Positions 9,134 to 53,480 of a DNA stretch of 64,000 bases are shown one piece after another. The position numbers and the translations under genes are program-made. The DNA comes from Rugamonas sp. (lineage in GTDB: Bacteria > Pseudomonadota > Gammaproteobacteria > Burkholderiales > Burkholderiaceae_D). The stretch lies in the NCBI RefSeq assembly GCF_025354735.1, contig NZ_JANXMI010000237.1:3978-67977 (forward strand). The letters run 5' to 3'. Below the pieces are notes generated by a model. The model was not told where the DNA came from, searched no databases, and saw only the letters and a list, made by a program, of their open reading frames with translations. Position 1 is the first letter of the stretch, and each line of letters opens with the position of its first letter.

Positions 9134-10003
9134 TCAACGGAATGCGTAATCGAGCGCCACGCCCGCGAACACGGCGGCGCCCAGCCAGTTGTTGTGGCGG
9201 AAGGCGGTGAAGCAGGGCTCGCGTTCGCGCCCGCGTATCAGTGTGTAATGATACAACGCCATCGCGCCCGCCACGGCCAGCCCGGCGTAGAACCAGGCGC
9301 CCAGGCCGAGCCGGCGGCCGCACAGCAGCAGCAGCAACAGGTGCGCCGCGTAGCAGGCCATGATGATGGCGACGTCGTAGCGGCCGAAGGTGATGGCCGA
9401 GGTGCGGATGCCGATCTTGAGGTCGTCGTCGCGGTCGACCATCGCGTATTCGGTGTCGTAGGCCAGCGTCCAGAAGATGTTCGCCGCCAGCAGCACCCAG
9501 GCCAGCGCCGGCACCCGGCCCTGCACGGCGGCGTAAGCCATGGGGATGCCGAAGCCGAAGGCGATGCCGAGGTAGGCTTGCGGGATCGCGAAGAAGCGCT
9601 TGAAGTAGGGGTAGCTGGCGGCCAGGATCACGGCGACGATGGACAATTCCTTGGTCAGCGTATTGAGCGGCAGGATCAGCGCGCCGGCCAGCACCGTGAG
9701 CACGGCGGCGATCGCCAGCGCTTCCCTGCCGCTGACGCGGCCGCTGGTGATGGGGCGCTGGGCGGTGCGCTTGACGTGCTTGTCGATATCCTGGTCGGCG
9801 TAGTCGTTGACGGCGCAGCCGGCCGAGCGCATCAGCAGCGTGCCGAGCGCGAAGATGGCCAGCAGCCTCCAGTCCGGCGCGCCGTTCGAGGCCAGCCACA
9901 GCGCGTTGAGCGTGGGCCACAGCAGCAGCACGGCGCCGATGGGCTTGTCGAGCCTCACCAGGCGGAAATACAGCGTCAGCTTGCTCGGGGAGTGGGTCGT
10001 CAT
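9134..10003 (-). CDS. ubiA: 4-hydroxybenzoate polyprenyltransferase
   Basis: 289 aa polytopic protein with [15 protein letters not shown] and [13 protein letters not shown], the UbiA prenyltransferase motifs. Confidence 0.9.
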
Positions 10004-32234: not shown

Positions 32235-33134
<900 letters not shown>

Positions 33135-36363: not shown

Positions 36364-37326
36364 TCAGGGCTGGGCGTCGGCGGCCAGCGCCGCGCGGGCG
36401 CGCCAGGCGGCGATGGCGCCGCTGATGTCGGTCAGTTCCAGCACCTGCACGCTGGGCGGCGTGCGCCGTTTCAGCGCCGCGCAGTCGCCGCCGGCCCACA
36501 GTTGCACCGAGGGCGGCAGGCGCGAGCGCAGCGCGGCCAGGCCGTCGAGCGCGTGGCGCGGATTCATGGCCGCCGAGAACGACAGGGCGACGACGTCGAT
36601 GCGCTGGGCCCGCGCCGCGTCGACGATGTCGAGCAGCGGCGTTTGCACGCCCAGCGAAATGCAGTGGGTGCCGTCGACCACGCACAGCGCTTCGGCCATC
36701 AGCAGGCCCAGGCCGTGGCGCTCCTGGGGCAGGGTGGTCAGCAGCACGCGCGGCGCGCCGTGGTTGGCGTTGGCCTGCGGCACGGAGAATATCGCGCTAC
36801 GCAACACCATCGTCAGCGACTCTGTATACAAGTGTTCTTCGAAGACGGCCAGCTGGCCGCTGGCCCAGGCTTCGCCGACCAGCTCGGTCAGCGGCGCGGC
36901 CAGGTCGGTGACGAAGCTTTTCAAGCCCATCACCAGCAGCGCCTGCGACAGCTTGCGGCGCAGCGCTTCCATCTCGTGCGCCTTGCACATCTGTAAATAC
37001 GGTTGCAGCGAAGCCGGCGGCGAGGTGCGCTGGCTGCGGGCGCCGGCGGCGTGCTCGGCCATCTTTTGCAGCTGTTCGGCGCTGAACTGGATCACCTTGC
37101 CGGGCCGGAAGCCGAGGTCGAGCAGGCGCTTGACCAAGCGAAGCTTGCGCACCTGTTCGACCGGATAAATCCGTTCGCCGTGCGGGTCGCGCAGCGGCTG
37201 CGGGAAGTCGTAGCGCCGTTCCCACACGCGCAGGGTTTCCTTGGCCACGCCGATATCGCGCTCAACGTCGCTAATCGTGCTGCTTATCGTACTGTCAACA
37301 GACAAGGAAAAAGGTTCAGTTTTCAT
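36364..37326 (-). CDS. MerR-family regulator with C-terminal cobalamin-binding domain (CarH/LitR-type putative photoreceptor)
   Basis: 320 aa from the inner ATG. MerR HTH ISDVERDIGVAKETLRVWERRYDFPQPLRDPHGERIY. W154-x9-E164-H165 (WASGQLAVFEEH). E202-x-H204-x-x-G207 (ERHGLG). Later ALSFSA and WAGGD, matching B12-binding domain landmarks. Confidence 0.75.
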   Translation of the reverse strand: MKTEPFSLSVDSTISSTISDVERDIGVAKETLRVWERRYDFPQPLRDPHGERIYPVEQVRKLRLVKRLLDLGFRPGKVIQFSAEQLQKMAEHAAGARSQRTSPPASLQPYLQMCKAHEMEALRRKLSQALLVMGLKSFVTDLAAPLTELVGEAWASGQLAVFEEHLYTESLTMVLRSAIFSVPQANANHGAPRVLLTTLPQERHGLGLLMAEALCVVDGTHCISLGVQTPLLDIVDAARAQRIDVVALSFSAAMNPRHALDGLAALRSRLPPSVQLWAGGDCAALKRRTPPSVQVLELTDISGAIAAWRARAALAADAQP

Positions 37327-37499
37327 CAGCCTAGGGCGTCTACGGGTCTGGGGTAGGCGCAAATGCGACACGGTTGCGTGCTGGTCGCGCATCCGGGATC
37401 AGTCTCCCATGATGCGACCTGCATTCTACATTCGTTTCGCACGAGAAAGTTATGCATCCAAATGGCGTCGCGCTGCGTATAAGTCCCCATAAGGAAGCT

Positions 37500-37572
37500 T
37501 GTCCACGACACTGGCTTGACATCCTTGAGTAATGACTTGATTCTCTGTCTTGCATCGATTGTGTCCAGGACA
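37500..37572. promoter_or_regulatory. Two copies of a TGTCCA(C/G)GACA palindromic 11-mer bracketing a TTGACA hexamer in the divergent promoter region (candidate operator)
   Basis: tgtccacgaca at 37500-37510, tgtccaggaca at 37562-37572, ttgaca at 37516-37521. The operon ATG is at 37600. Confidence 0.3.
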
Positions 37573-37599
37573 AAATAAGCCGGAAAAAGGTGAAAAATA

Positions 37600-38892
37600 A
37601 TGAAAATAGCTGTTGTAGGCGCCGGAATTTCCGGCCTCGCTTGCGCGCACCGGCTGGTCCGGGCCGGCCATGACGTGGTTTTATATGAGGCCGACGACTA
37701 TTTTGGCGGCCACAGCCACACCGTCGATGTCACCTTCGACGGCATCACGCACGGCTTCGACACCGGTTTTTTAGTCTTTAATCACCACACCTATCCCGAG
37801 TTGACGGCGCTGTTCCAGGAACTGGGCGTACAGAGCACCGCCAGCGAAATGACGTTCTCGGTCAAGCTGCCCGTCGGCGGCCGCATGCTGGAATGGGCCG
37901 GCGGCAATCTCGATCAAGTCTTCACACAGCGCCGCAATCTGGTCAGCCTGCCGTTTTTGCGCATGTTGCGTGATATTTTGCGCTTTAATCGCGCCGCCAG
38001 CGCGCTCGCGCTGACCGGCCCGGCATCGGCAGCGGAGCCCGGCCCCACGCTGGGCGACTATCTCGACCGGCACGGCTACGGCGCCCAGTTCCGCCACTGG
38101 TATCTGCTGCCGATGGCGGCTTGCATCTGGTCCTGCCCGGCCGAGCAGATGCTGGCCTTTCCGCTGTCGACTTTCGTGCGTTTCTGCCACAACCATGGCC
38201 TGTTGCAGGTGAGCGGCCGGCCGCAATGGCGCAGCGTCGCCGGCGGCTCGCGCAACTATGTCGAGCAACTGCTGCTGGGCATACCGGAGCGGCGCCTGGC
38301 CAGCCCGGTGCTGGCCGTGATCCGCCACGGCCGGGGCGGCGCGCGCGCGGTCGGCGTGGTGACGGCCGACGGCGAGGCACAGTACGATGAAGTGGTGCTG
38401 GCCTGTCACAGCGACCAGTCGCTGGCGCTGCTGGCCGATGCCGGCGACGAGGAGCGCGCGCTGCTGGCGAGCGTGCGCTACCAGCCCAACCGCGCCGTGC
38501 TGCACACCGATACCAGCTGCCTGCCCGCCAGGCGCAAGGCCTGGTCGGCCTGGAATTACCAGGGCAGCGGCGGCGACGATCCGCGCGTCTGCGTGCATTA
38601 CCTCATCAACCAGCTGCAGGTACTGCCGTTCACGCAGCCGGTGATCGTCTCGCTCAATCCCATCACCGCGCCCGATCCGGCCACGGTGCTGGGCCGGTTC
38701 GACTATGCCCATCCGGTGTTCGACGCGGCCGCCGTGGCCGCGCAGCGCCGCCTGCCGGCATTACAGGGCCGCGGCCACACCTGGTTCGCCGGCGCGTGGA
38801 CCGGTTACGGCTTCCACGAAGACGGTTTGAAATCGGGCTTGCGCGTGGCCGACGCCTTGATCGCCAGGGGCGAGGTGCGCCATGCCGCTTGA
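37600..38892 (+). CDS. NAD/FAD-dependent oxidoreductase (amine oxidase / phytoene-desaturase-like; UfaD-like)
   Basis: 430 aa. MKIAVVGAGISGLACAHRL...VLYEADDYFGGHSHT dinucleotide-binding fold. First gene of the operon. Confidence 0.8.
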   Translation: MKIAVVGAGISGLACAHRLVRAGHDVVLYEADDYFGGHSHTVDVTFDGITHGFDTGFLVFNHHTYPELTALFQELGVQSTASEMTFSVKLPVGGRMLEWAGGNLDQVFTQRRNLVSLPFLRMLRDILRFNRAASALALTGPASAAEPGPTLGDYLDRHGYGAQFRHWYLLPMAACIWSCPAEQMLAFPLSTFVRFCHNHGLLQVSGRPQWRSVAGGSRNYVEQLLLGIPERRLASPVLAVIRHGRGGARAVGVVTADGEAQYDEVVLACHSDQSLALLADAGDEERALLASVRYQPNRAVLHTDTSCLPARRKAWSAWNYQGSGGDDPRVCVHYLINQLQVLPFTQPVIVSLNPITAPDPATVLGRFDYAHPVFDAAAVAAQRRLPALQGRGHTWFAGAWTGYGFHEDGLKSGLRVADALIARGEVRHAA

Positions 38893-39697
38893 TCCGCTTG
38901 AGTCACCTGCGCCGCAGCCGCGCCACGTGGCGGCCGTGCCGCAGCTGTGCTTCGGCCAGGTGCGCCACAAGCGCCTGCGGCCCGTGGTCCACGCCTTCCA
39001 GTACGGCGTCTATTTTTTGCGGCTGCCCTTGCGCAGCATGGGCGAGCGCGATTTCGACGCGCGCCTGATGTCGCGCAACGGCCGCAATCTGCTGTCCTTC
39101 CGCGACAGCGATCATGGCGACGGCCGCCAGCCCCTGCTGCAATGGATAGACGGCCTGCTGGCGGCCGAAGGCGTGCGCGACGCCGACGGCGAAATCTGGT
39201 TGCAGACCATGCCGCGCGTGCTGGGCTATGTGTTCAATCCCGTTTCGTTCTGGTTTTGCCACCGCCGCGACGGCGCCCTGCGCGCGGTGCTGTGCGACGT
39301 CCGCAACACCTTCGGCGAGCGCCATTTCTATCTGCTCGACAGCGGCGCGGCGATCGCCTCCGGCGCCGAGCTGCGGGCCAAAAAAATCTTCCACGTCTCG
39401 CCGTTCTGCGCGGTACTGGGCGAGTACCGCTTCCGCTTCGTGCGCGCGCAGCGCCGGCACGAGCGCACGCTGGCCAGCATCGCCTACGCCGACGCCGACG
39501 GCGCGCTGCTGCAAACGAGTTGGTCCGGCGACGGCGCCGCCATCGGCGACCGCGCCGTCGCGCGCGCCTTCTTCACTTATCCGCTGATGACGGTCGGCGT
39601 CATGGTCCGCATCCATCTTCAGGCGCTGCGGCTTTGGCTGCGGCGCGTCCCCTTCTTTTCCAAACCCACGCCACCACAACAAAAGGTTAGCCGATGA
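38882..39697 (+). CDS. DUF1365-family protein (UfaO-like)
   Basis: 271 aa. CFGQVRHKRLRPVVHAFQYGVYFLRLPL and FNPVSFWFCH are typical DUF1365 patterns. 11-nt overlap with the upstream gene. Confidence 0.75.
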   Translation: MPLDPLESPAPQPRHVAAVPQLCFGQVRHKRLRPVVHAFQYGVYFLRLPLRSMGERDFDARLMSRNGRNLLSFRDSDHGDGRQPLLQWIDGLLAAEGVRDADGEIWLQTMPRVLGYVFNPVSFWFCHRRDGALRAVLCDVRNTFGERHFYLLDSGAAIASGAELRAKKIFHVSPFCAVLGEYRFRFVRAQRRHERTLASIAYADADGALLQTSWSGDGAAIGDRAVARAFFTYPLMTVGVMVRIHLQALRLWLRRVPFFSKPTPPQQKVSR

Positions 39698-40938
39698 CGT
39701 CCGATTCCCTGCAAGCGCTCACGCGCACATCCCACGCATCCCACGCCGCCCACGCGGACCATGACAGCCTGCCCGGCGCCGCCCGGATCATCTTGAGGAT
39801 GCTGGCTTGCCTGAAGCACGGCGCGCTGCGGCTGACGATGCCGGACGGCGCTTGCCGAACTTTCGGCGACGGCTCCGCGCCGGTCGCGCTGGAACTGAAA
39901 AACTGGAACCTGTGCGGCGCCGCGCTGCGTTCGGGCGACATCGGCTTCGCCTCCTCCTTCATCGCCGGCGACTGGAGCACCGACAATCTGCCGGCGCTGA
40001 TCGAGCTGTTGGTACGCAACCGCGAGCAGATCGAGTCGCTGGTCTACGGCAGCTGGTGGGGCAGCCTGCTGTATCGCCTCAAGCATCTGCTGAACCGCAA
40101 TTCGCGCGCCGGCAGCCGCAAAAACATCCACGCCCACTACGACATCGGCAACGCCTTTTATCAATTGTGGCTGGACCCGACTATGACGTATTCGGCCGGT
40201 ATTTTCCGTCCCGAAGATGGCGGCGATTTGCAACTGGCGCAGATGGCCAAGTACCGCCGCATCATCGCGCAGCTGCGCTTGCAGCCCGATGCGCTGGTGC
40301 TGGAAATCGGCTGCGGCTGGGGCGGATTCGCCGAGACGGCCGTGCGCGAGGCCCAAGCCCACGTCACCGGCCTGACCCTGTCGCAAGAGCAGCTCGACTA
40401 CGCGCAGCGGCGCGTCGCCGACGCCGGCTTCGCCAACGAGGCGCACCTGCAATTGCGCGACTACCGCGACTGCAACGGCCAGTACGACGCCATCGCCTCG
40501 ATTGAAATGTTCGAGGCCGTCGGCGAGCGTTATTGGGACAGCTACTTCGACTGCCTGGCGCGCAACCTGAAACGCGGCGGGCGCGCCTGCGTCCAGACCA
40601 TCGTCATCGACGACGCGCTGTTCGGCCGCTATCGCAAGGGCAGCGATTTCATCCAGCAGTATATTTTCCCGGGCGGGATGCTGCCGTCGCCGTCGGCCTT
40701 CCGCCTGCGCGCCGCGCTGCACGGCCTGTGCGTGGAAGACGAATTCAGTTTCGGCATGGACTACGCGGAGACGCTGCGCCAGTGGCGCGCGGCCTTCCAC
40801 GCGCGCCGCGCCGAGGTCGAGGCGCAAGGCTTCGACCGCGCCTTCATGCTGACGTGGGAATTCTATCTGGCCTATTGCGAAGCGGCTTTCCGCGCCGGCA
40901 ATACCGACGTCATGCAGTTCACGCTGGTGAAAAGCTGA
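39694..40938 (+). CDS. Cyclopropane-fatty-acyl-phospholipid synthase-family SAM methyltransferase
   Basis: 414 aa. NIHAHYDIGNAFYQLWLDPTMTYSAGIF, VLEIGCGWGGFAE, SIEMFEAVG. ATGA overlap with the upstream gene. Confidence 0.85.
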   Translation: MTSDSLQALTRTSHASHAAHADHDSLPGAARIILRMLACLKHGALRLTMPDGACRTFGDGSAPVALELKNWNLCGAALRSGDIGFASSFIAGDWSTDNLPALIELLVRNREQIESLVYGSWWGSLLYRLKHLLNRNSRAGSRKNIHAHYDIGNAFYQLWLDPTMTYSAGIFRPEDGGDLQLAQMAKYRRIIAQLRLQPDALVLEIGCGWGGFAETAVREAQAHVTGLTLSQEQLDYAQRRVADAGFANEAHLQLRDYRDCNGQYDAIASIEMFEAVGERYWDSYFDCLARNLKRGGRACVQTIVIDDALFGRYRKGSDFIQQYIFPGGMLPSPSAFRLRAALHGLCVEDEFSFGMDYAETLRQWRAAFHARRAEVEAQGFDRAFMLTWEFYLAYCEAAFRAGNTDVMQFTLVKS

Positions 40939-40940
40939 CC

Positions 40941-41546
40941 ATGCGGCGCCGCGCGCAGGCATGGGGAGGGGCGGCGCTGCTGGCGCTGGCGGCCGCCGTA
41001 GCGCAGGCCGCGCCGGCATCGGCCACGGCGTCGGCATCAGCGTCGGCGTCGTCCACCGCGTCCGCGCCGGCGCTGATCGCGCAGCAGCTGCCGGACGCGC
41101 GGCTGGCCGGGCAGGGCGTGTACACCTGGTTCGGCCTGACGATATATCAGGCCCAGTTGTGGGTGGGGCCGCAGGGCTATCGGGGCGCCGCGCCGGACGC
41201 GGCGCCGTTCGTGCTCGACCTGCGTTATGCGCGTACGCTCAACGGCCGCAAGATCGCCGACGCCAGCGCCGACCAGATGCGCAAAATCGGCGCTGGCAGC
41301 GAGGCCCAGCGCGCCGCGTGGCTGCAAGCGATGCGCGCCATCTTCCCCGATGTGACGGAAGGGATGCATATCAGCGGCGTCTATAGTCCCGGCGCCGGCA
41401 CCCGGTTTTATCTCGACGGCCGGCCGCTGGGCGAGGTGCCGGACCCCGCGTTCGCGCGCGCCTTCTTCGGCATCTGGCTGGACCCGGCCAGCACCGACGG
41501 CGACCTGCGGACCGCCTTGCTGCGCGACGCTGCGCCGTCGCCATGA
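40941..41546 (+). CDS. Secreted chalcone-isomerase-like (fatty-acid-binding fold) protein
   Basis: 201 aa from ATG 40941. Signal peptide plus an Ala/Ser-rich linker. LAGQGVYTWFGLTIYQAQLWV resembles the chalcone-isomerase-like family pattern. Confidence 0.6.
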   Translation: MRRRAQAWGGAALLALAAAVAQAAPASATASASASASSTASAPALIAQQLPDARLAGQGVYTWFGLTIYQAQLWVGPQGYRGAAPDAAPFVLDLRYARTLNGRKIADASADQMRKIGAGSEAQRAAWLQAMRAIFPDVTEGMHISGVYSPGAGTRFYLDGRPLGEVPDPAFARAFFGIWLDPASTDGDLRTALLRDAAPSP

Positions 41547-41662
41547 AGGCGCCAGCGAGGTCGCCGATGAAATTGCCGATGAAATTGCCGATGAAATTGC
41601 TAATGAAGTCGCCCGCGAGGTCGCCAATAAAGTCGCCGGCCATCGCGCCGCCGGCAGCGCCG
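41543..41662 (+). repeat. 12-nt periodic in-frame tandem repeat (three perfect gccgatgaaatt copies at 41563-41598 plus degenerate flanking units)
   Basis: Direct reading: gccgatgaaatt x3, then gctaatgaagtc. Flanked by gcgaggtcgcc(g/a)at(g/a)aa units. Confidence 0.8.
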
Positions 41663-42916
41663 GCGCTGTCGCGCGGCGGCCTGCTGTGGTACGGCCAGTT
41701 CGGTTTGCCGCTGGCGATGGTGGCGCTGCCGATCTATGTCTATGTGCCGCAGTTTTACGCCCTGCGCAGCGGCCTGACGCTGGCCGCGATCGGTGCCGTG
41801 CTGCTGGCGGCGCGGCTGGTGTCGGCCCTGATCGATCCGGCGCTGGGCTGGTGGATGGAACGCCGCCTGGCGCGCGGCGGCCGCGGTTACGGCGCCTGCG
41901 TGGCGTGGTCGCTGGCGCCGCTGCTGCTCGGCTTCGGCGCGCTGTTCCACCCGCCGGCGCTGGCCGGCGCGGCGGCGCTGGGATGGTTTTCGCTGTCGCT
42001 GCTGCTGGTGTATTTCGGCTTCGGCCTGGCGACGATCGCGCACCAGAGCTGGGGCGCGGCGCTGACCCAGCAAGCAGGCCCGCGCGCGCGCGTGACGGCC
42101 GCGCGCGAAGGCTGCGGCCTGCTCGGCGTGATGCTGGCGGCCGCCCTGGCCAGCGCCTACGGCTATGACGCGTTGTCGCTGGCCTTCGCCATCGCGTTGC
42201 TGGTCGGCGCGGCCGGCCTGCTGGCGCGCGCGCCCAAGCCGGCCCGCAGCCCGTCGCCGCCAGCCGCACGGCCGCGCGTCGCGCCGGCGTCGTCCTTGCT
42301 GGCGCCCTGGCGCGTGGCGCGCTTCCGCTCCCTGTACGCGGTGCTGATGTTGAACGGCGTGGCGGCGGCGATTCCGGCCACGCTGTTCCTGTTTTTCGTG
42401 CAGGACCGTTTGCGGCTGGGTGCCTATGCCGGCGCCTTCCTGGTGCTGTACTTCGCCTGCGCGGCGGCGTCGATGGCGGCGTGGGCGGCGCTGGCGCAGC
42501 GCATCGGTGAAGCGCGCGCCTGGCTGGCGGCGATGCTGCTGGCGGCCGGCGCGTTCGTGTGGGCCGCCGCGCTGGGCGCCGGCGACGCGGCCGGGTATGG
42601 CCTCATCTGCGCGCTGTCCGGCGCGGCGCTGGGCGCCGACCTGGCGCTGCCGCCGGCCCTGCTGGCCGGCGTGATCGCGCAGGCCGGCGACAGCGGCAAA
42701 CGCGAAGCGGCGTATTTCGGCTGGTGGAACTGGGGCGTGCAAATGAACCTGGCGTTGGCGGCGGGCATCGCGCTGCCGCTGCTGCAATGGTACGGCTACG
42801 CGCCCGGCACCCAGCACGGCGTGGCGGCGCTGTCGGCCGCGTATGCGCTGCTGCCGTGCGCCTTGAAACTGCTGGCGGCGCTGCTGTTGTGGCGCGCGCC
42901 GCTGCGCGACTGCTGA
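41543..42916 (+). CDS. MFS-type transporter with an N-terminal tetrapeptide-repeat tail
   Basis: 457 aa, about 12 hydrophobic segments. ATGA overlap with the upstream stop. N-terminus MKAP ARSP MKLP MKLP MKLL MKSP ARSP IKSP AIAP PAAP. Confidence 0.7.
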   Translation: MKAPARSPMKLPMKLPMKLLMKSPARSPIKSPAIAPPAAPALSRGGLLWYGQFGLPLAMVALPIYVYVPQFYALRSGLTLAAIGAVLLAARLVSALIDPALGWWMERRLARGGRGYGACVAWSLAPLLLGFGALFHPPALAGAAALGWFSLSLLLVYFGFGLATIAHQSWGAALTQQAGPRARVTAAREGCGLLGVMLAAALASAYGYDALSLAFAIALLVGAAGLLARAPKPARSPSPPAARPRVAPASSLLAPWRVARFRSLYAVLMLNGVAAAIPATLFLFFVQDRLRLGAYAGAFLVLYFACAAASMAAWAALAQRIGEARAWLAAMLLAAGAFVWAAALGAGDAAGYGLICALSGAALGADLALPPALLAGVIAQAGDSGKREAAYFGWWNWGVQMNLALAAGIALPLLQWYGYAPGTQHGVAALSAAYALLPCALKLLAALLLWRAPLRDC

Positions 42917-42966
42917 TATGCATCCGATGATATGTATCCGAATAATCGACCGATCCAGGAACCGCC

Positions 42967-43524
42967 ATGATTACTTTTAAAACCCACGCCGCACTGGCCG
43001 CCGCCGCGCTGCTGCTGGGCGCCTGTTCGTCGCCGGTGGCGCCGGAATTCTATGCGCAGCAAACGCCGGCGCTCGACATCGAACATTATTTCAACGGCAC
43101 GCTGGACGCGCACGGCATGTTCCAGGACCGCGGCGGCAAGGTCGCCAAGCGCTTCACGGTGCTGATGCACGGTCACTGGCAGGGCGGCACCGGCACGCTG
43201 GATGAGGACTTCCGCTACGCCGACGGCAGCCGGCAGCACAGGGTCTGGACGTTGCGCAAAACCGCGCCCGGCCACTACACCGGCACGGCGCCGGACGTGG
43301 TGGGCGAGGCCAGCGTGGTCGTCGCCGGCAATGCGATGCGGCTCAGCTACGTGCTGATGGTGCCGTCCGACGGCAAAACCTATAATCTCGATTTCGACGA
43401 CTGGCTGTACCTGATCGACGACCGCGTGATGCTGAACCGCGCCGCGATGAGCAAGTTCGGCTTTAGCCTGGGCAGCCTGACGGTGGCGTTCAACCGCCGC
43501 GGCGACGAGGACGGCGCGCCGTGA
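42967..43524 (+). CDS. DUF3833-family lipoprotein
   Basis: 185 aa. Lipobox LLLGAC. FNGTLDAHGMFQDRGGKVAKRFTVLMHGHWQGGTGTLDEDFRYADGS...W matches my recollection of the DUF3833 pattern. Confidence 0.65.
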   Translation: MITFKTHAALAAAALLLGACSSPVAPEFYAQQTPALDIEHYFNGTLDAHGMFQDRGGKVAKRFTVLMHGHWQGGTGTLDEDFRYADGSRQHRVWTLRKTAPGHYTGTAPDVVGEASVVVAGNAMRLSYVLMVPSDGKTYNLDFDDWLYLIDDRVMLNRAAMSKFGFSLGSLTVAFNRRGDEDGAP

Positions 43525-44291
43525 TGAATCCCAAGGTGGACGACTGGCGCGGCCGCCACGTGTGGATCATCGGCGCCTCCACCGGCATCGGCGCGGCCGT
43601 CGCCCGGCTGCTGATGGAGCGGGGCGCGCACGTGGCGGTGTCGGCGCGGCGCCAGCGGCTGCTCGACGCGATGATCGTGGGCCAGCCGCAGGCGCAGGCG
43701 GTGGCGCTCGACGTCACCGACCACGCCACCATCGTGCGCGCGCGCGACCGGATCATGGCGCGCTGGCCGCGCCTCGACCTGGTGCTGATCGTCGCCGGCG
43801 GCTACAACGAAATGCGCGCCGACAGCTTCGACCTGGTCGCGGCCAACCGCATGATCGACCTGAATCTGCGCGGCGTCTGCAACTGCCTCGACCTGCTGCT
43901 GCCGCTGCTGTTGCGGCAGGGCGCGGGCGGCATCGGCATCGTGTCGTCGGTGGCCGGTTACGGCGGCTTGCCGAAGGCGCTGGCCTACGGTCCGACCAAG
44001 GCGGCCCTGATCAATTTGTGCGAGTCGCTGTACTGCGATTTGCATGGGCGCGGGATCGCGGTCTATCAAATCAATCCGGGCTTCGTCGACACGCCGCTGA
44101 CGGCGGCCAACGACTTCGCCATGCCGGCCCTGATGTCGCCGCAGGCCGCCGCGCGGCAGCTGGTGCGCGGCATCGAGCGCGGCGCCTTCCACATCCATTT
44201 TCCCAAGCGATTTACCAATGTGATGCGGGTGATGCGGCTGCTGCCGTATCGTTGTTATTTCTGGCTGGTGCGAAAGGTGACCAAACTATGA
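43521..44291 (+). CDS. Short-chain dehydrogenase/reductase (SDR)
   Basis: 256 aa. WIIGASTGIGAAVA (cofactor motif), SSVAGY...AYGPTKAAL (YxxxK). ATGA-type overlap with the upstream gene. Confidence 0.85.
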   Translation: MMNPKVDDWRGRHVWIIGASTGIGAAVARLLMERGAHVAVSARRQRLLDAMIVGQPQAQAVALDVTDHATIVRARDRIMARWPRLDLVLIVAGGYNEMRADSFDLVAANRMIDLNLRGVCNCLDLLLPLLLRQGAGGIGIVSSVAGYGGLPKALAYGPTKAALINLCESLYCDLHGRGIAVYQINPGFVDTPLTAANDFAMPALMSPQAAARQLVRGIERGAFHIHFPKRFTNVMRVMRLLPYRCYFWLVRKVTKL

Positions 44292-44749
44292 ATCGGATGA
44301 CGGACATGACGATGAACCGGGACGACGACGCGGCCTTGCTGCGGCTGGTGCGCTTCTACGAGACGCTGACGCCGCAGTCGCTGGCCCGGCTCGACCACAT
44401 CTACGCCTTCGACGCGCGCTTCAAGGACCCGTTCAACGATGTGCGCGGACTGGCCGCGATCCGGCGCGTGTTCGAGCACATGTTCGCGCAGCTGCTGGAA
44501 CCGCGCTTCATCGTCACCACGCGCATGGCCCAGGGCGCGGACGCTTTTTTGGCGTGGGAGATGCAGTTCCGTTTCCGGCGCTGGGCCGGCACGCCGCAGG
44601 TGATACGCGGCGCCACCCACGTGCGCTTCGACGCCGACGGCCTGGTGCTGCTGCACCGCGATTACTGGGACGCGGCCGAGGAGCTGTATGAAAAGCTGCC
44701 GCTGCTGGGCCGCTTCATGCGGGTGCTGAAACGGGCCGTGAACCGCTAG
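44288..44749 (+). CDS. NTF2/SnoaL-like fold protein
   Basis: 153 aa from ATG 44288, overlapping the SDR stop. LVRFYETLTPQSLARLDHIYAFDARFKDPFNDVRG is an NTF2-like pattern. Confidence 0.6.
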   Translation: MNRMTDMTMNRDDDAALLRLVRFYETLTPQSLARLDHIYAFDARFKDPFNDVRGLAAIRRVFEHMFAQLLEPRFIVTTRMAQGADAFLAWEMQFRFRRWAGTPQVIRGATHVRFDADGLVLLHRDYWDAAEELYEKLPLLGRFMRVLKRAVNR

Positions 44750-44761
44750 CGCTGCGGCGCG

Positions 44762-45757
44762 TCAATCGGCGGCGATGCCCGACGGTCCGACGCGGCGCGC
44801 GTTCGGCGTGTTCGACATGCGGATCCGGATCAGGTGGCGCGCCGCGTCGGTGTAGGGCGAGCGGCCGTGCAGCGTGCGGTGGTTGTCGGCCCACAGCAGC
44901 GTGTCGTCGGGCAGCCGGTGCGAGAAACGCGGCGCGCTGTACTCGACCAGTTCATTGACCAGTTCCAGCGCGGCCCGCAGCGGCGCGCTGCCCAGGTCCG
45001 GCCGCGCCGCCAGGCCCTTGCAGATCGAGTCGTAGCGCCAGCGCATGGCCCAGCCGCCGTCTTCGCCGTCGGGCCGGTGGAACACCGGCGCCAGATGGTA
45101 TTCCAGCTGCTCGTCGCTGGCCGCGTACACCGACGGCACGCGGAACGGCACCGAGGCGGCGCACAGCAGCGTGAACGCGGCGCGCCCGGCGGCGCTGCGG
45201 GCCAGCGCGCGGACGATGTCGTCGACGTCGATCAGCAGCGAGGCGCCGCCCTGGCAGCGCGCCGCCTTCACCACGTACAGCATGAATTGTTCCTCCGGCA
45301 TGGGATAGAAGGAGGAGTCGGTGTGCATGTCGGCGCCGCCGACGCGCTCGGAAAACGTGGTGAAGCGCGACTGCGCTTCGTGGGCCGGGCGGGCCCGCAC
45401 GTCCCACGCGACGCGGCCGGTGCGCTGGTCGGTCGACGTCGGGAAGCCGCGCGTGAGCGCGATCGCATACAGCACGGCGTTGCGGTCGGCCTCGGCTAGC
45501 GCGCCCAGTCCGAGGCCGGTGATGGCCAGGCCGCGCGCGCCGCTGGCGCCGATGGCGCGCGCCAGTCCGGCCAGCGCCGGCACGGCCAGCAACTCGCGTT
45601 GCAGACTCTCCTCGCGGGGGTGGGGATAGAAGCCGTTGCCGTTGAAATCGTCGAAATGATGACGCACGATGGCGATCACGCGGGCCAGGTCGTCGCCCCA
45701 TTTCAGGTTGGCGGGCAGGATGAAAATCGGGGAGGAAGTGGCGGTGGTCGGGTGCAT
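44762..45757 (-). CDS. TauD/TfdA-like Fe(II)/2-oxoglutarate dioxygenase family protein
   Basis: 331 aa from the inner ATG. HTDSSF (HxD facial-triad part), and NHRTLHGRSPY (distal His plus Arg). Confidence 0.6.
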   Translation of the reverse strand: MHPTTATSSPIFILPANLKWGDDLARVIAIVRHHFDDFNGNGFYPHPREESLQRELLAVPALAGLARAIGASGARGLAITGLGLGALAEADRNAVLYAIALTRGFPTSTDQRTGRVAWDVRARPAHEAQSRFTTFSERVGGADMHTDSSFYPMPEEQFMLYVVKAARCQGGASLLIDVDDIVRALARSAAGRAAFTLLCAASVPFRVPSVYAASDEQLEYHLAPVFHRPDGEDGGWAMRWRYDSICKGLAARPDLGSAPLRAALELVNELVEYSAPRFSHRLPDDTLLWADNHRTLHGRSPYTDAARHLIRIRMSNTPNARRVGPSGIAAD

Positions 45758-46217
45758 GCAAAGCTCCAATAAATTTCCGTATGGCAATACTAGTGCGCAA
45801 TGTTACACCGTTTTAAGGCGGCCGGCCGGCGTCGATGCTGCGTTGCAGCAGGCGCGCCGCGGCCGCCGTCGACGCCCCGCCCATAGTGAAAACAAGTTTG
45901 CTCAGGCATCGATTTTTCGTCAATACTATGCAAAACTATCTTTTGATAGGAATGCTTATTACTTTTATGTCGAAGTAAAAAGTTAATTGTTTCTGCATAA
46001 AATGATGTGAAGGGCATGAAAAGCTGTGTTTTATTCTGTTTAGGACAGAATTGGAAAAACACCGGTTTACACTCTACAAACGGTAATTTAGTGAAGATGT
46101 ATTTGCTAACTTTTGGTCATTATTTCTTATTTAAAAGTCTATAAGCTTTCCTTTCTGCAAAAAATATTGCGTTGCGATAGAATCTTGCCTCATGGAAAAA
46201 CTAACGGAGTAATTTAG

Positions 46218-53136: not shown

Positions 53137-53480
53137 GAAGCAAGCCAGACAGCCGCTGGCCAGCGCGTAATGCCTGGCGGGAGGAAGGTCCGGACTCCAT
53201 AGAGCGGGGTGACGGTTAACGGCCGTCCGCTGAAAGCCGCAAGCGCAAGCCCAGGGTATAAGGCGAGGAATAGGGCCACAGAGACGAGCGTATTAAGTTA
53301 CGGTGAAACGCGGTAACCTCCACCTGGTGCAATTCCAAATAGGCACGCGATGATGCTGCTCGCGGAGCGTGCGGGTAGGAAGCTTGAGCGCCGGAGTAAT
53401 TCGGCGCCTAGAGGAATGGCTGTCATAGCGCGGGTTCGCCCGCGCCGTAACAAAATCCGGCCTATCGGCTTGCTTCAACT
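53137..53480 (+). ncRNA. rnpB: RNase P RNA, bacterial type A
   Basis: P1 pairing gaagcaagcc (53137-53146) with ggcttgcttc (53467-53476). P4 strands gaggaaggtccggactcc (53181-53198) and acaaaatccggcctat (53450-53465). Also ggtgaaacgcggtaacctccacctgg, caaatagg and gcttgagc blocks colinear with E. coli M1 RNA. tacaat -10 at 53124-53129. Confidence 0.9.

Follow-up and report, generated by a model that had tools for sequence, protein, structure and literature searches.

Within a 64-kb stretch of DNA from Rugamonas sp. (Oxalobacteraceae), which we refer to throughout as the window, a gene for a CarH/LitR-type regulator lies back to back with an eight-gene operon whose products resemble enzymes of membrane lipid modification. 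The regulator gene (36364..37326, minus strand) encodes a protein of 320 aa for which Pfam and NCBIfam matches indicate a MerR DNA-binding domain and a cobalamin-binding domain. The operon begins 273 bp away on the plus strand and comprises, in order, genes for a UfaD-like FAD oxidoreductase, a UfaO-like DUF1365 protein, a methyltransferase of the cyclopropane fatty acid (CFA) synthase family, a secreted chalcone-isomerase-like protein, a transporter of the major facilitator superfamily (MFS), a DUF3833 lipoprotein, a short-chain dehydrogenase/reductase (SDR) and a SnoaL/NTF2-like protein. Successive genes are separated by -11, -4, +2, -4, +50, -4 and -4 nt. Together with two conserved palindromes in the shared intergenic region, this arrangement suggested to us that the regulator might be a light-relieved repressor of a lipid-defence operon.

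Three structural units are recognizable in the regulator. Residues 17-78 form a MerR-type winged-helix DNA-binding domain (37093..37278, minus strand; MerR_1, PF13411, 49.1 bits), which is nearly invariant among relatives and aligns with the DNA-binding domain of Thermus CarH (TtCarH). Residues 111-175 correspond to a four-helix-bundle subdomain (36802..36996, minus strand; B12-binding_2, PF02607, 26.9 bits against a gathering score of 23), and residues 193-284 to a Rossmann-type B12-binding subdomain (36475..36750, minus strand; PF02310, 30.3 bits against a gathering score of 32.1). The latter family is present in the precomputed Pfam list of an identical protein (P0001). A fully identical (100%) NCBI protein from Rugamonas sp. 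has its annotated start seven codons later, which gives 313 aa, and an upstream ATG at 37392 that would yield 342 aa receives no support from homologues.

Homologues of CarH have been defined by the two motifs ExHx2Gx41SxV/Tx22-27GG and Wx9EH (PMC8156234). In the regulator, G151xxW154-x9-E164H165 is spelled WASGQLAVFEEH (nt 36832-36867) and aligns with W131, E141 and H142 of TtCarH. The lower-ligand motif, E202xH204xxG207 (ERHGLG, nt 36706-36723), aligns with E175xH177xxG of TtCarH, such that His204 (codon at nt 36715-36717) occupies the position of the TtCarH ligand His177. From this motif, 41 residues lead to S249xS251 and a further 27 to G279G280, and the segments ALSFSA, WAGGD and G226xxxP230 are also present. 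The regulator thus combines the MerR domain, Wx9EH and ExHx2G with the x41 and x22-27 spacings that characterize class I proteins. Because both CarH-defining motifs are present with the correct spacing, the regulator is, by the published motif definition, a CarH/LitR protein of class I type. A second signature, associated with the light response, consists of GxxW, EH, GxxH and GxxxP, wherein the main chain of the Gly in GxxH forms a hydrogen bond to the corrin (PMC11796333); GxxW, EH and GxxxP are all found in the regulator, and all are invariant or nearly so among its relatives.

The extent of this conservation was assessed with two samples, one consisting of 80 related loci fetched from reference genomes and the other an alignment of 151 regulator sequences, namely the window protein and its 150 best representatives after 50% clustering (39-58% identical). 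The tryptophan, the glutamate and His165 are kept in all 80 loci and His204 in 77 of them, and the W, EH, H and G positions are jointly retained in 135 of the 151 aligned sequences. When 1.84 billion cluster representatives were searched exhaustively with HMMER, 701 clusters were returned at E <1e-30, and several database sources label members of this group 'light-induced transcriptional regulator' or 'CarH'. The regulator appears to belong to a large subfamily of CarH/LitR-type photoreceptor-repressors that occurs mainly in Betaproteobacteria and whose members would be expected to bind cobalamin and to respond to light.

Structural comparisons point in the same direction. The best solved relatives by sequence are the TtCarH entries 5c8d and 3whp (E ~1e-25 with phmmer against the PDB). 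When an AlphaFold (AF2) model built from a 13-sequence alignment (pLDDT 72.6) was compared with the PDB by using Foldseek, full-length TtCarH took all of the top 12 places, and next came cobalamin-binding domains of TtCarH (TM ~0.6 on the target) and CtMerR of Chloracidobacterium thermophilum (PDB 8JBS/8JBT). The last of these is an experimentally validated MerR-family photoreceptor that uses adenosylcobalamin (AdoCbl), and it matches the regulator in both sequence and fold at ~20-22% identity. The original prediction, made from the letters of the sequence, had described a fully B12-competent-looking CarH/LitR protein opposite eight operon-like genes. The landmarks it named (W154-x9-E164-H165, His204, ERHGLG, ALSFSA and WAGGD) were all recovered, coordinates included, the eight divergent genes of the named families at 273 bp are borne out by Pfam matches and junction distances, and the likeness to Thermus CarH that it proposed to look for in a predicted structure is evident. 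Its Pfam check turned out well for MerR_1 and B12-binding_2, both above their gathering scores, and not for B12-binding (30.3 versus 32.1). Both defining motif sets are present, yet the word 'fully' goes too far at five points taken up below, which are the QxxH and SxS variants, the lack of a His132 equivalent, the B12-binding match just under its threshold and a low score against the CarH equivalog model.

The intergenic region carries evidence that ties the regulator to the operon. Two near-identical 13-bp palindromes of the form TTGTCC-N-GGACAA lie 62 bp apart, start to start, and flank a predicted sigma-70-type promoter (37516..37544, plus strand) with a -35 element TTGACA at 37516-37521, a 17-nt spacer and a -10 element GATTCT at 37539-37544; the transcription start is predicted near 37551. 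The predicted operator O1, TTGTCCACGACAC (37499..37511), is an imperfect palindrome of the type TGTCC-N-GGACA situated 4 nt before the -35 element. The predicted operator O2, GTGTCCAGGACAA (37561..37573), lies downstream of the -10 element and ahead of the ATG at 37600. A search of the 64 kb for TTGTCCNGGACAA with up to two mismatches gives just two matches, both within the 273-bp intergenic region. Since 1.4 matches are expected and two were observed, the count alone is not significant, and it is the placing of the sites, their spacing and their conservation that carry the case. The exact core TGTCCNGGACA is present in 24 related loci, always and only directly upstream of the regulator gene. 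In an alignment of 50 distinct orthologous intergenic sequences out of the related loci, conservation is strongest, by a wide margin, in the columns of the two palindromes and is moderate at the -35 and -10 elements, with relatives showing TTGAC(A/T/C), 17 nt and then GATTAT, TAGTAT or TATTGT in the same place. Spacing between O1 and O2 is 62-63 bp in most loci with a credible pair, and a pair so spaced is found in most of the 80 related loci. The spacing is preserved even next to a regulator that is ~47% identical, at a locus in an uncultured betaproteobacterial metagenome-assembled genome (L086; GCA_016861105.1, 1-12600), where the same O1, a TTGACA -35 element, a 17-nt spacer, a TATTGT -10 element and O2 recur at 63 bp.

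Because these conserved operators bracket the promoter and the linkage described below is kept across Burkholderiales, direct control of the divergent operon by the regulator is strongly suggested. The fixed spacing of 62-63 bp, or about six helical turns, suggests that one oligomer might occupy both sites cooperatively. Each palindrome looks like an independent unit, since Janthinobacterium retains O2 alone and some other genera retain O1 alone, directly before TTGACA. On its reverse strand O2 contains a -35-like TGGACA that is followed, after a 16-nt spacer, by GAGAAT, and we conjecture that this promoter-like element on the minus strand might serve the regulator gene and so give autoregulation. 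Two other readings of the region were set aside. The tandem 11-bp direct repeats of TtCarH-type operators (nAnnTnnACAn) can be fitted in part and on one strand only, and the palindromes were preferred. A promoter of the SigmaE/ChrR type was considered for a minus-strand TGATCC near 37396-37401, which has no matching -10 element and was treated as a chance occurrence.

When the window proteins were compared with the 80 related loci by tblastn, the operon was found linked to the regulator in 33 of them and in two chromosomal contexts. All eight genes are divergent and adjacent in 22 loci, a partial set is present in 11 (several of these are cut by contig ends) and none is present in 43. In Oxalobacteraceae the regulator gene always adjoins ftsY-ftsE. 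Twelve of the 22 full loci come from more distant Burkholderiales that lack the ftsY neighbour and encode regulators 53-57% identical to ours, and because the operon remains linked there, the association holds in two chromosomal contexts. Many of the loci without the operon appear to have lost it. A deletion scar is visible in L001, L002 and L003 (about 9300-9800) and in other loci from Duganella, Massilia and Pseudoduganella, wherein the operators, the promoter, the 5′ untranslated region and approximately the first 40 nt of ufaD remain and the eight-gene operon is gone. As the 5′ remnant of ufaD directly follows O2, the loss must be secondary, and the regulator, being intact after this loss, presumably has other targets.

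In the more distant loci the operon begins with genes for glutathione peroxidase and/or the GTP cyclohydrolase FolE2 (confirmed by Pfam), placed ahead of ufaD. The metagenomic locus L086 has a ten-gene operon, divergent from the regulator gene, that consists of GSHPx, FolE2 and then the eight genes, with a photolyase-related (DPRP, PF04244) gene immediately downstream of the regulator gene and a TspO gene at the far end. In other relatives gpx is the sole divergent neighbour that has been retained. The linked gpx, folE2 and photolyase-related genes have functions in photo-oxidative stress. As the original prediction had noted, no photolyase, extracytoplasmic function (ECF) sigma factor or carotenoid gene stands beside the regulator gene in the window, and none was detected by Pfam scans of the other sizeable open reading frames (ORFs) there. 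The different wiring that it suggested is less novel than it implied, as control of a ufaM-type cluster by a class II LitR protein has been published for Pseudomonas (PMC9758184). Because the regulators of relatives adjoin glutathione peroxidase, folE2 and a photolyase-related gene, the lack of such genes in the window seems better explained by local loss than by a design of another kind.

The His204 equivalent is replaced in three loci, by Asp in both Duganella vulcania loci (L012 and L014) and by Gln in Pseudoduganella violacea (L038). All three are among the 43 loci without the operon, compared with none among the 33 with it, although these are small numbers and two of the loci are from the same species. 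That loss of His204 tracks loss of the operon is suggestive and anecdotal, and may reflect relaxed selection on B12 binding.

Turning to the operon itself, the first three genes recall a characterized pathway. UfaD (RSP1091/RPA2571), the DUF1365 protein UfaO (RSP1090/RPA2570) and the CFA-synthase-like UfaM (RPA2569) make a 9M5-furan fatty acid, and the ufaD-ufaO-ufaM trio of Rhodopseudomonas palustris is both necessary and sufficient for the production of this compound (PMC7380195). The first gene (37600..38892, plus strand) encodes an FAD oxidoreductase of the amine-oxidase/phytoene-desaturase superfamily (PF01593, Amino_oxidase; PF13450, NAD_binding_8). Its nearest PDB match is the amine oxidase LkcE (E 1.6e-40), accompanied by weak matches to the CrtI/CrtD family, so that the NAD/FAD-binding, phytoene-desaturase-related character of UfaD is apparent at the family level only. 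The second gene (38882..39697, plus strand) encodes a DUF1365 protein matched over its full length (PF07103, 265 bits) and, as expected of ufaO, sits beside the ufaD-like gene, whose end it overlaps by 11 nt. The third (39694..40938, plus strand) encodes an S-adenosylmethionine-dependent methyltransferase of the CFA synthase family that is a candidate UfaM (CMAS, PF02353, 269 bits). It has PDB matches to CFA synthases (E 7e-56), scores below the cut-offs of the NCBIfam CFA-synthase models and occupies the position of RPA2569. The methylated product of UfaM is 11Me-12t-18:1, and no model separates UfaM from CFA synthase. The likeness to RPA2571-2570-2569 lies in family membership and in the identical order of FAD oxidoreductase, DUF1365 protein and CMAS protein.

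The remaining genes are less easily interpreted. A chalcone-isomerase-like protein with a signal-peptide-like N-terminus is encoded at 40941..41546 (plus strand; ATG at 40941; Chalcone_3, PF16036, 56.5 bits), followed by an MFS_2 (GPH-family) transporter (41543..42916, plus strand; PF13347, 140.9 bits), a DUF3833 lipoprotein whose translation contains the lipobox LLGAC (42967..43524, plus strand; PF12915, 213.8 bits), an SDR protein (43521..44291, plus strand; adh_short, PF00106, 132 bits) and, as the last gene, a SnoaL/NTF2-like protein whose start overlaps the SDR stop codon as ATGA (44288..44749, plus strand; SnoaL_2, PF12680, 60.3 bits). For the DUF1365, DUF3833 and chalcone-isomerase-like proteins no solved relatives were found, and melibiose permease is the only solved match, a weak one, for the transporter. 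Compared with the operons RSP1091-1087 of Rhodobacter sphaeroides and RPA2571-2568 of R. palustris, the chalcone-isomerase-like, MFS_2 and SnoaL genes are additions here, and RSP1088 (186 aa) and RSP1087 (245 aa) are close in size to the 185-aa and 256-aa proteins of our operon (PMC7380195).

Two variants among the related loci divide the operon. One (L007) keeps the chalcone-isomerase-like, MFS, DUF3833 and SnoaL genes without ufaD-ufaO-cmas, and the other (L028) keeps ufaD-ufaO-cmas and the SnoaL gene without the middle genes, which suggests that the operon may consist of two separable modules. Two short repeats also fall within it. A perfect 12-nt tandem repeat of 3.2 copies, GCCGATGAAATT (41563-41600), occupies the 5′ end of the MFS gene, where it encodes MKLP repeats and makes the start of that gene uncertain; either the true start is further downstream or the N-terminus is variable in length. 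A 14-nt unit, TGATATGCATCCGA, occurs twice at 42914-42941, in the operon's sole sizeable intergenic gap, between the MFS and DUF3833 genes.

Taken together, the layout of the domains, the signature residues, the likeness in fold, the structure of the operon and the conservation of operators, promoter and synteny incline us toward the hypothesis that the regulator is an AdoCbl-dependent repressor, relieved by light, that controls an operon for lipid defence against photo-oxidation. Cobalamin binding, the light response, repression, the oligomeric state and the lipid product are all things that we infer from these observations. By analogy with TtCarH, the AdoCbl-loaded regulator would oligomerize in the dark, and the oligomer would occupy both operators, O1 immediately before the -35 element and O2 downstream of the -10 element, ahead of the start codon. 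At 62 bp, or approximately six helical turns, the two sites would lie on the same face of the DNA. Binding would shut the sigma-70 promoter of the operon and probably also the overlapping divergent promoter of the regulator gene. Ultraviolet, blue or green light would then break the Co-C bond, the affinity for the operators would be lost and the operon would be transcribed. The UfaD-like desaturase, the UfaO-like DUF1365 oxygenase and the CMAS methylase would convert phospholipid acyl chains into methylated fatty acids, and probably into furan fatty acids, as scavengers of singlet oxygen and radicals. The chalcone-isomerase-like (periplasmic), MFS_2, DUF3833, SDR and SnoaL-like proteins would have accessory roles, possibly in handling lipids across the envelope.

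This proposed system would share with TtCarH (class I LitR; PDB 5C8D/5C8E/5C8F) a MerR domain, a four-helix bundle, a Rossmann B12 domain and a divergent layout of regulator gene and photoprotective operon, at 25-30% identity and with TtCarH as the best fold match. Whereas TtCarH targets carotenoid genes, the target here is a ufa-like lipid operon. The class II LitR proteins of Pseudomonas (PplR1 of P. putida; PmlR1 and PmlR2 of P. mendocina) are likewise MerR-family repressors, and they control a cluster of phrB, SDR, FAD-oxidoreductase and ufaM genes within a regulon that includes folE (PMC9758184). Footprinted PmlR2 sites, of which the first is at the -35 element and the second lies past the transcription start but ahead of the ATG, parallel the layout of O1 and O2, whereas the class II consensus TGTACA-N12-TGTACA differs from the TGTCC-N-GGACA found here (PMC9758184). 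However, class II LitR has only the four-helix bundle, is independent of B12 and relies on a short-LOV partner to sense light. Our protein has a Rossmann B12 domain that includes the His ligand, and scans of the window revealed no LOV gene, so that class II identity was rejected for it. A further parallel is offered by CarA of Myxococcus xanthus, which also joins a MerR domain to a B12-like domain and binds a bipartite, palindrome-containing operator as two dimers; in contrast to our regulator, CarA lacks Wx9EH and is B12-independent (PMC8156234).

The furan fatty acid genes of R. sphaeroides are under the control of an ECF sigma factor (sigmaE) during exposure to singlet oxygen. A one-component repressor that itself senses light, as proposed here, would be a different solution. 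In line with sigma-factor control in R. sphaeroides, deletion of the anti-sigma gene chrR raises the accumulation of furan fatty acids there (PMC7380195).

A number of observations weigh against the proposed mechanism. The PF02310 match falls slightly below its gathering score, the NCBIfam CarH equivalog NF052513 is the best NCBIfam match yet scores 124 against a cut-off of 400, and the structural model is of only moderate confidence. The SxV/T element reads S249-F-S251 (SxS), which is the lone departure from the CarH motif definition and a conservative one, with Ser at the third position in 121 of the 151 aligned sequences and Thr in 17. In the light-response signature GxxH reads Q201xxH204, with Gln in place of the Gly that corresponds to Gly174 of TtCarH. 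Gly is never found at this position in the 80 loci (Q in 74), and the alignment has Gly in 74 and Gln in 19 of its 151 sequences. In addition, Ala155 occupies the position of His132 of TtCarH, where only one of the 151 aligned sequences has His. His132, the upper-axial residue, forms the bis-His light state and was found in a 2023 study to be needed for disassembly of the tetramer (PMC10442372), though the light-responsive CtMerR also lacks an equivalent and carries Arg instead (PMC11796333). As the same pattern recurs in the 80 loci and in the 151-sequence alignment, these departures from TtCarH are a property of the whole subfamily.

The DNA holds further difficulties. Two palindromes 62 bp apart differ from the three tandem 11-bp direct repeats of the TtCarH operator and, more generally, from the three to four such repeats overlapping the promoter that TtCarH and BmCarH bind as tetramers (PMC8156234). 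The -10 element of the operon (GATTCT) is weak, for which reason a strict promoter scan did not call the promoter, and its elements were read from the sequence. There is no sign of cobalamin supply within the window, where an Rfam scan at gathering thresholds finds no cobalamin riboswitch and returns RNase P RNA as its only match. Many close relatives have kept the regulator and the operators and lost the operon. Finally, because RSP1089 (the CMAS homologue within the R. sphaeroides operon) and RSP1088-1087 are dispensable for furan fatty acid formation, the real UfaM of that species being encoded elsewhere (PMC7380195), the product of our operon is not readable from homology.

Some of these difficulties would be explained if the regulator represses through O1 and O2 and is not an AdoCbl photoreceptor, with the B12-like domain serving oligomerization only and release being brought about by a LOV, BLUF or CarS-like partner or by an oxidative signal, as with CarA and class II or III LitR. 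Sub-threshold B12-binding scores, Gln for the signature Gly, the lack of a His132 equivalent and an operator layout nearer to that of class II LitR than to that of TtCarH (PMC9758184) would all be in keeping with such a protein, and CarA does work without B12 despite its B12 motif (PMC8156234). However, Wx9EH is missing from CarA, and the Rossmann B12 domain from class II LitR (PMC8156234; PMC9758184), whereas the regulator has both motif sets, on which purifying selection is strong among sequences that are 39-58% identical. Neither the window nor the related loci examined contain a linked gene for a LOV, BLUF or antirepressor protein, and we regard this explanation as unlikely. Still harder to credit is a regulator that reports cobalamin availability or the redox state of cobalt rather than light, so that B12 status switches the operon. 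CarH-type repressors need AdoCbl to repress (PMC8156234), and B12 starvation would therefore also derepress the operon. Yet the linked genes (glutathione peroxidase, folE2, photolyase-related, TspO and ufa) belong to photo-oxidative stress and not to B12 metabolism, and AdoCbl bound under a Wx9EH cap has been photolabile in all tested homologues (PMC8156234; PMC11796333).

Alternatively, the adjacency might be incidental, with the operators doing no more than autoregulating the regulator gene and the operon being controlled independently. That 43 related loci have retained the regulator and operators but have no operon beside them, and that O2 holds the -35-like TGGACA of a possible minus-strand promoter, would accord with this arrangement. 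The ufaD scar directly after O2 in operon-less loci instead signifies secondary loss, the conserved promoter elements (-35 and -10) that O1 and O2 enclose are oriented toward the operon, and the linkage persists in a second chromosomal context, all of which make mere coincidence most improbable. More serious is the possibility that regulation is as we propose and the product is something other than furan fatty acids, such as a methyl-branched, cyclopropane or conjugated-diene lipid, or that the operon serves the sensing, repair or trafficking of oxidized lipids, with the five extra genes central to its function. Here the R. sphaeroides precedent (RSP1089-1087 not needed, UfaM elsewhere; PMC7380195) carries weight, the CMAS protein best matches CFA-synthase models, though below their cut-offs, and the split variants point to two separable modules. 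Against these stand the order ufaD-ufaO-CMAS, identical to the R. palustris trio that suffices for 9M5-furan fatty acid synthesis (PMC7380195), and the full-length DUF1365 match of 265 bits. We take a different lipid product to be a possibility of some substance, albeit not the one we would choose.

If the hypothesis of a light-relieved, AdoCbl-dependent repressor is adopted, the features that set the regulator apart from TtCarH invite a bolder and quite tentative proposal, which we put forward with doubt. The large betaproteobacterial CarH subfamily, with this as its type locus, may work unlike TtCarH, with one dimer bound to each of the palindromes, kept precisely 62-63 bp from each other, and an AdoCbl-dependent association of dimers that loops or wraps the promoter; release by light would take place without a bis-His switch. 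Its ancestral regulon would have been a ten-gene gpx-folE2-ufa unit for defence against lipid peroxidation, in place of carotenoid genes, and light could in this way directly reprogram membrane lipid chemistry by means of a one-component B12 sensor.

The pairing of a CarH/LitR protein with ufa genes is credible, since both modules are individually known, and a specialist would probably find the locus plausible rather than surprising. B12-type CarH is well characterized for carotenoid genes (PMC8156234), and the part of the literature that was covered contains no report connecting a B12-type CarH/LitR with ufa, CFA or DUF1365 genes or with Oxalobacteraceae. What varies here is the palindromic bipartite operator, the lack of a His132 equivalent and the choice of a lipid operon as target, in a system that is clean and easily tested. 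If our hypothesis is correct, then B12 photoreceptors, for which experiments have so far pointed mainly to carotenoid genes as targets, would also turn on an antioxidant lipid pathway (furan or methylated fatty acids) together with peroxidase and pterin genes, and would do so in common soil and freshwater Betaproteobacteria. The compact operator/promoter of ~75 bp would constitute a one-component green/blue-light switch with a DNA-binding geometry unlike that of TtCarH, which could be of interest for optogenetics. Moreover, the natural variants (operon deletions, split modules and His-ligand substitutions) would help to assign functions to the five uncharacterized genes of a very widespread operon.

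Among the more divergent relatives, four loci with regulators 43-48% identical to ours (L083, L084, L085 and L087) have a codirectional alpha/beta-hydrolase gene (Lipase_2 / Palm_thioest / PGAP1-like) after the regulator gene, in a neighbourhood rich in lipid-storage genes for phasin, ACBP, WS/DGAT and patatin. In one of them (L085) a pair of genes for an ECF sigma factor and an anti-sigma factor lies upstream.

Elsewhere in the window, Pfam matches to sizeable ORFs reveal housekeeping genes, among them those for cytochrome oxidase, a porin, a TonB-dependent receptor, glycerol kinase and a thiamine pyrophosphate (TPP) enzyme and the dcw cluster, and ftsX, ftsE, ftsY, cheW-like and methyl-accepting chemotaxis protein (MCP)-like genes were identified by eye or by tblastn only. 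As for sigma factors, an RpoH-like ORF (32235-33134), recognized by eye without a domain scan, is the only one seen. The RNase P RNA is of the bacterial class A (53137-53480, plus strand; 211 bits) and lies between the TPP-enzyme and glycerol kinase genes. A gene for a TauD/TfdA-family dioxygenase (44762-45787, minus strand) converges on the end of the operon at a distance of 12 nt, and its homologues travel with the region in seven related loci (L001, L003, L008, L020, L035, L036 and L041), even where the operon is absent.

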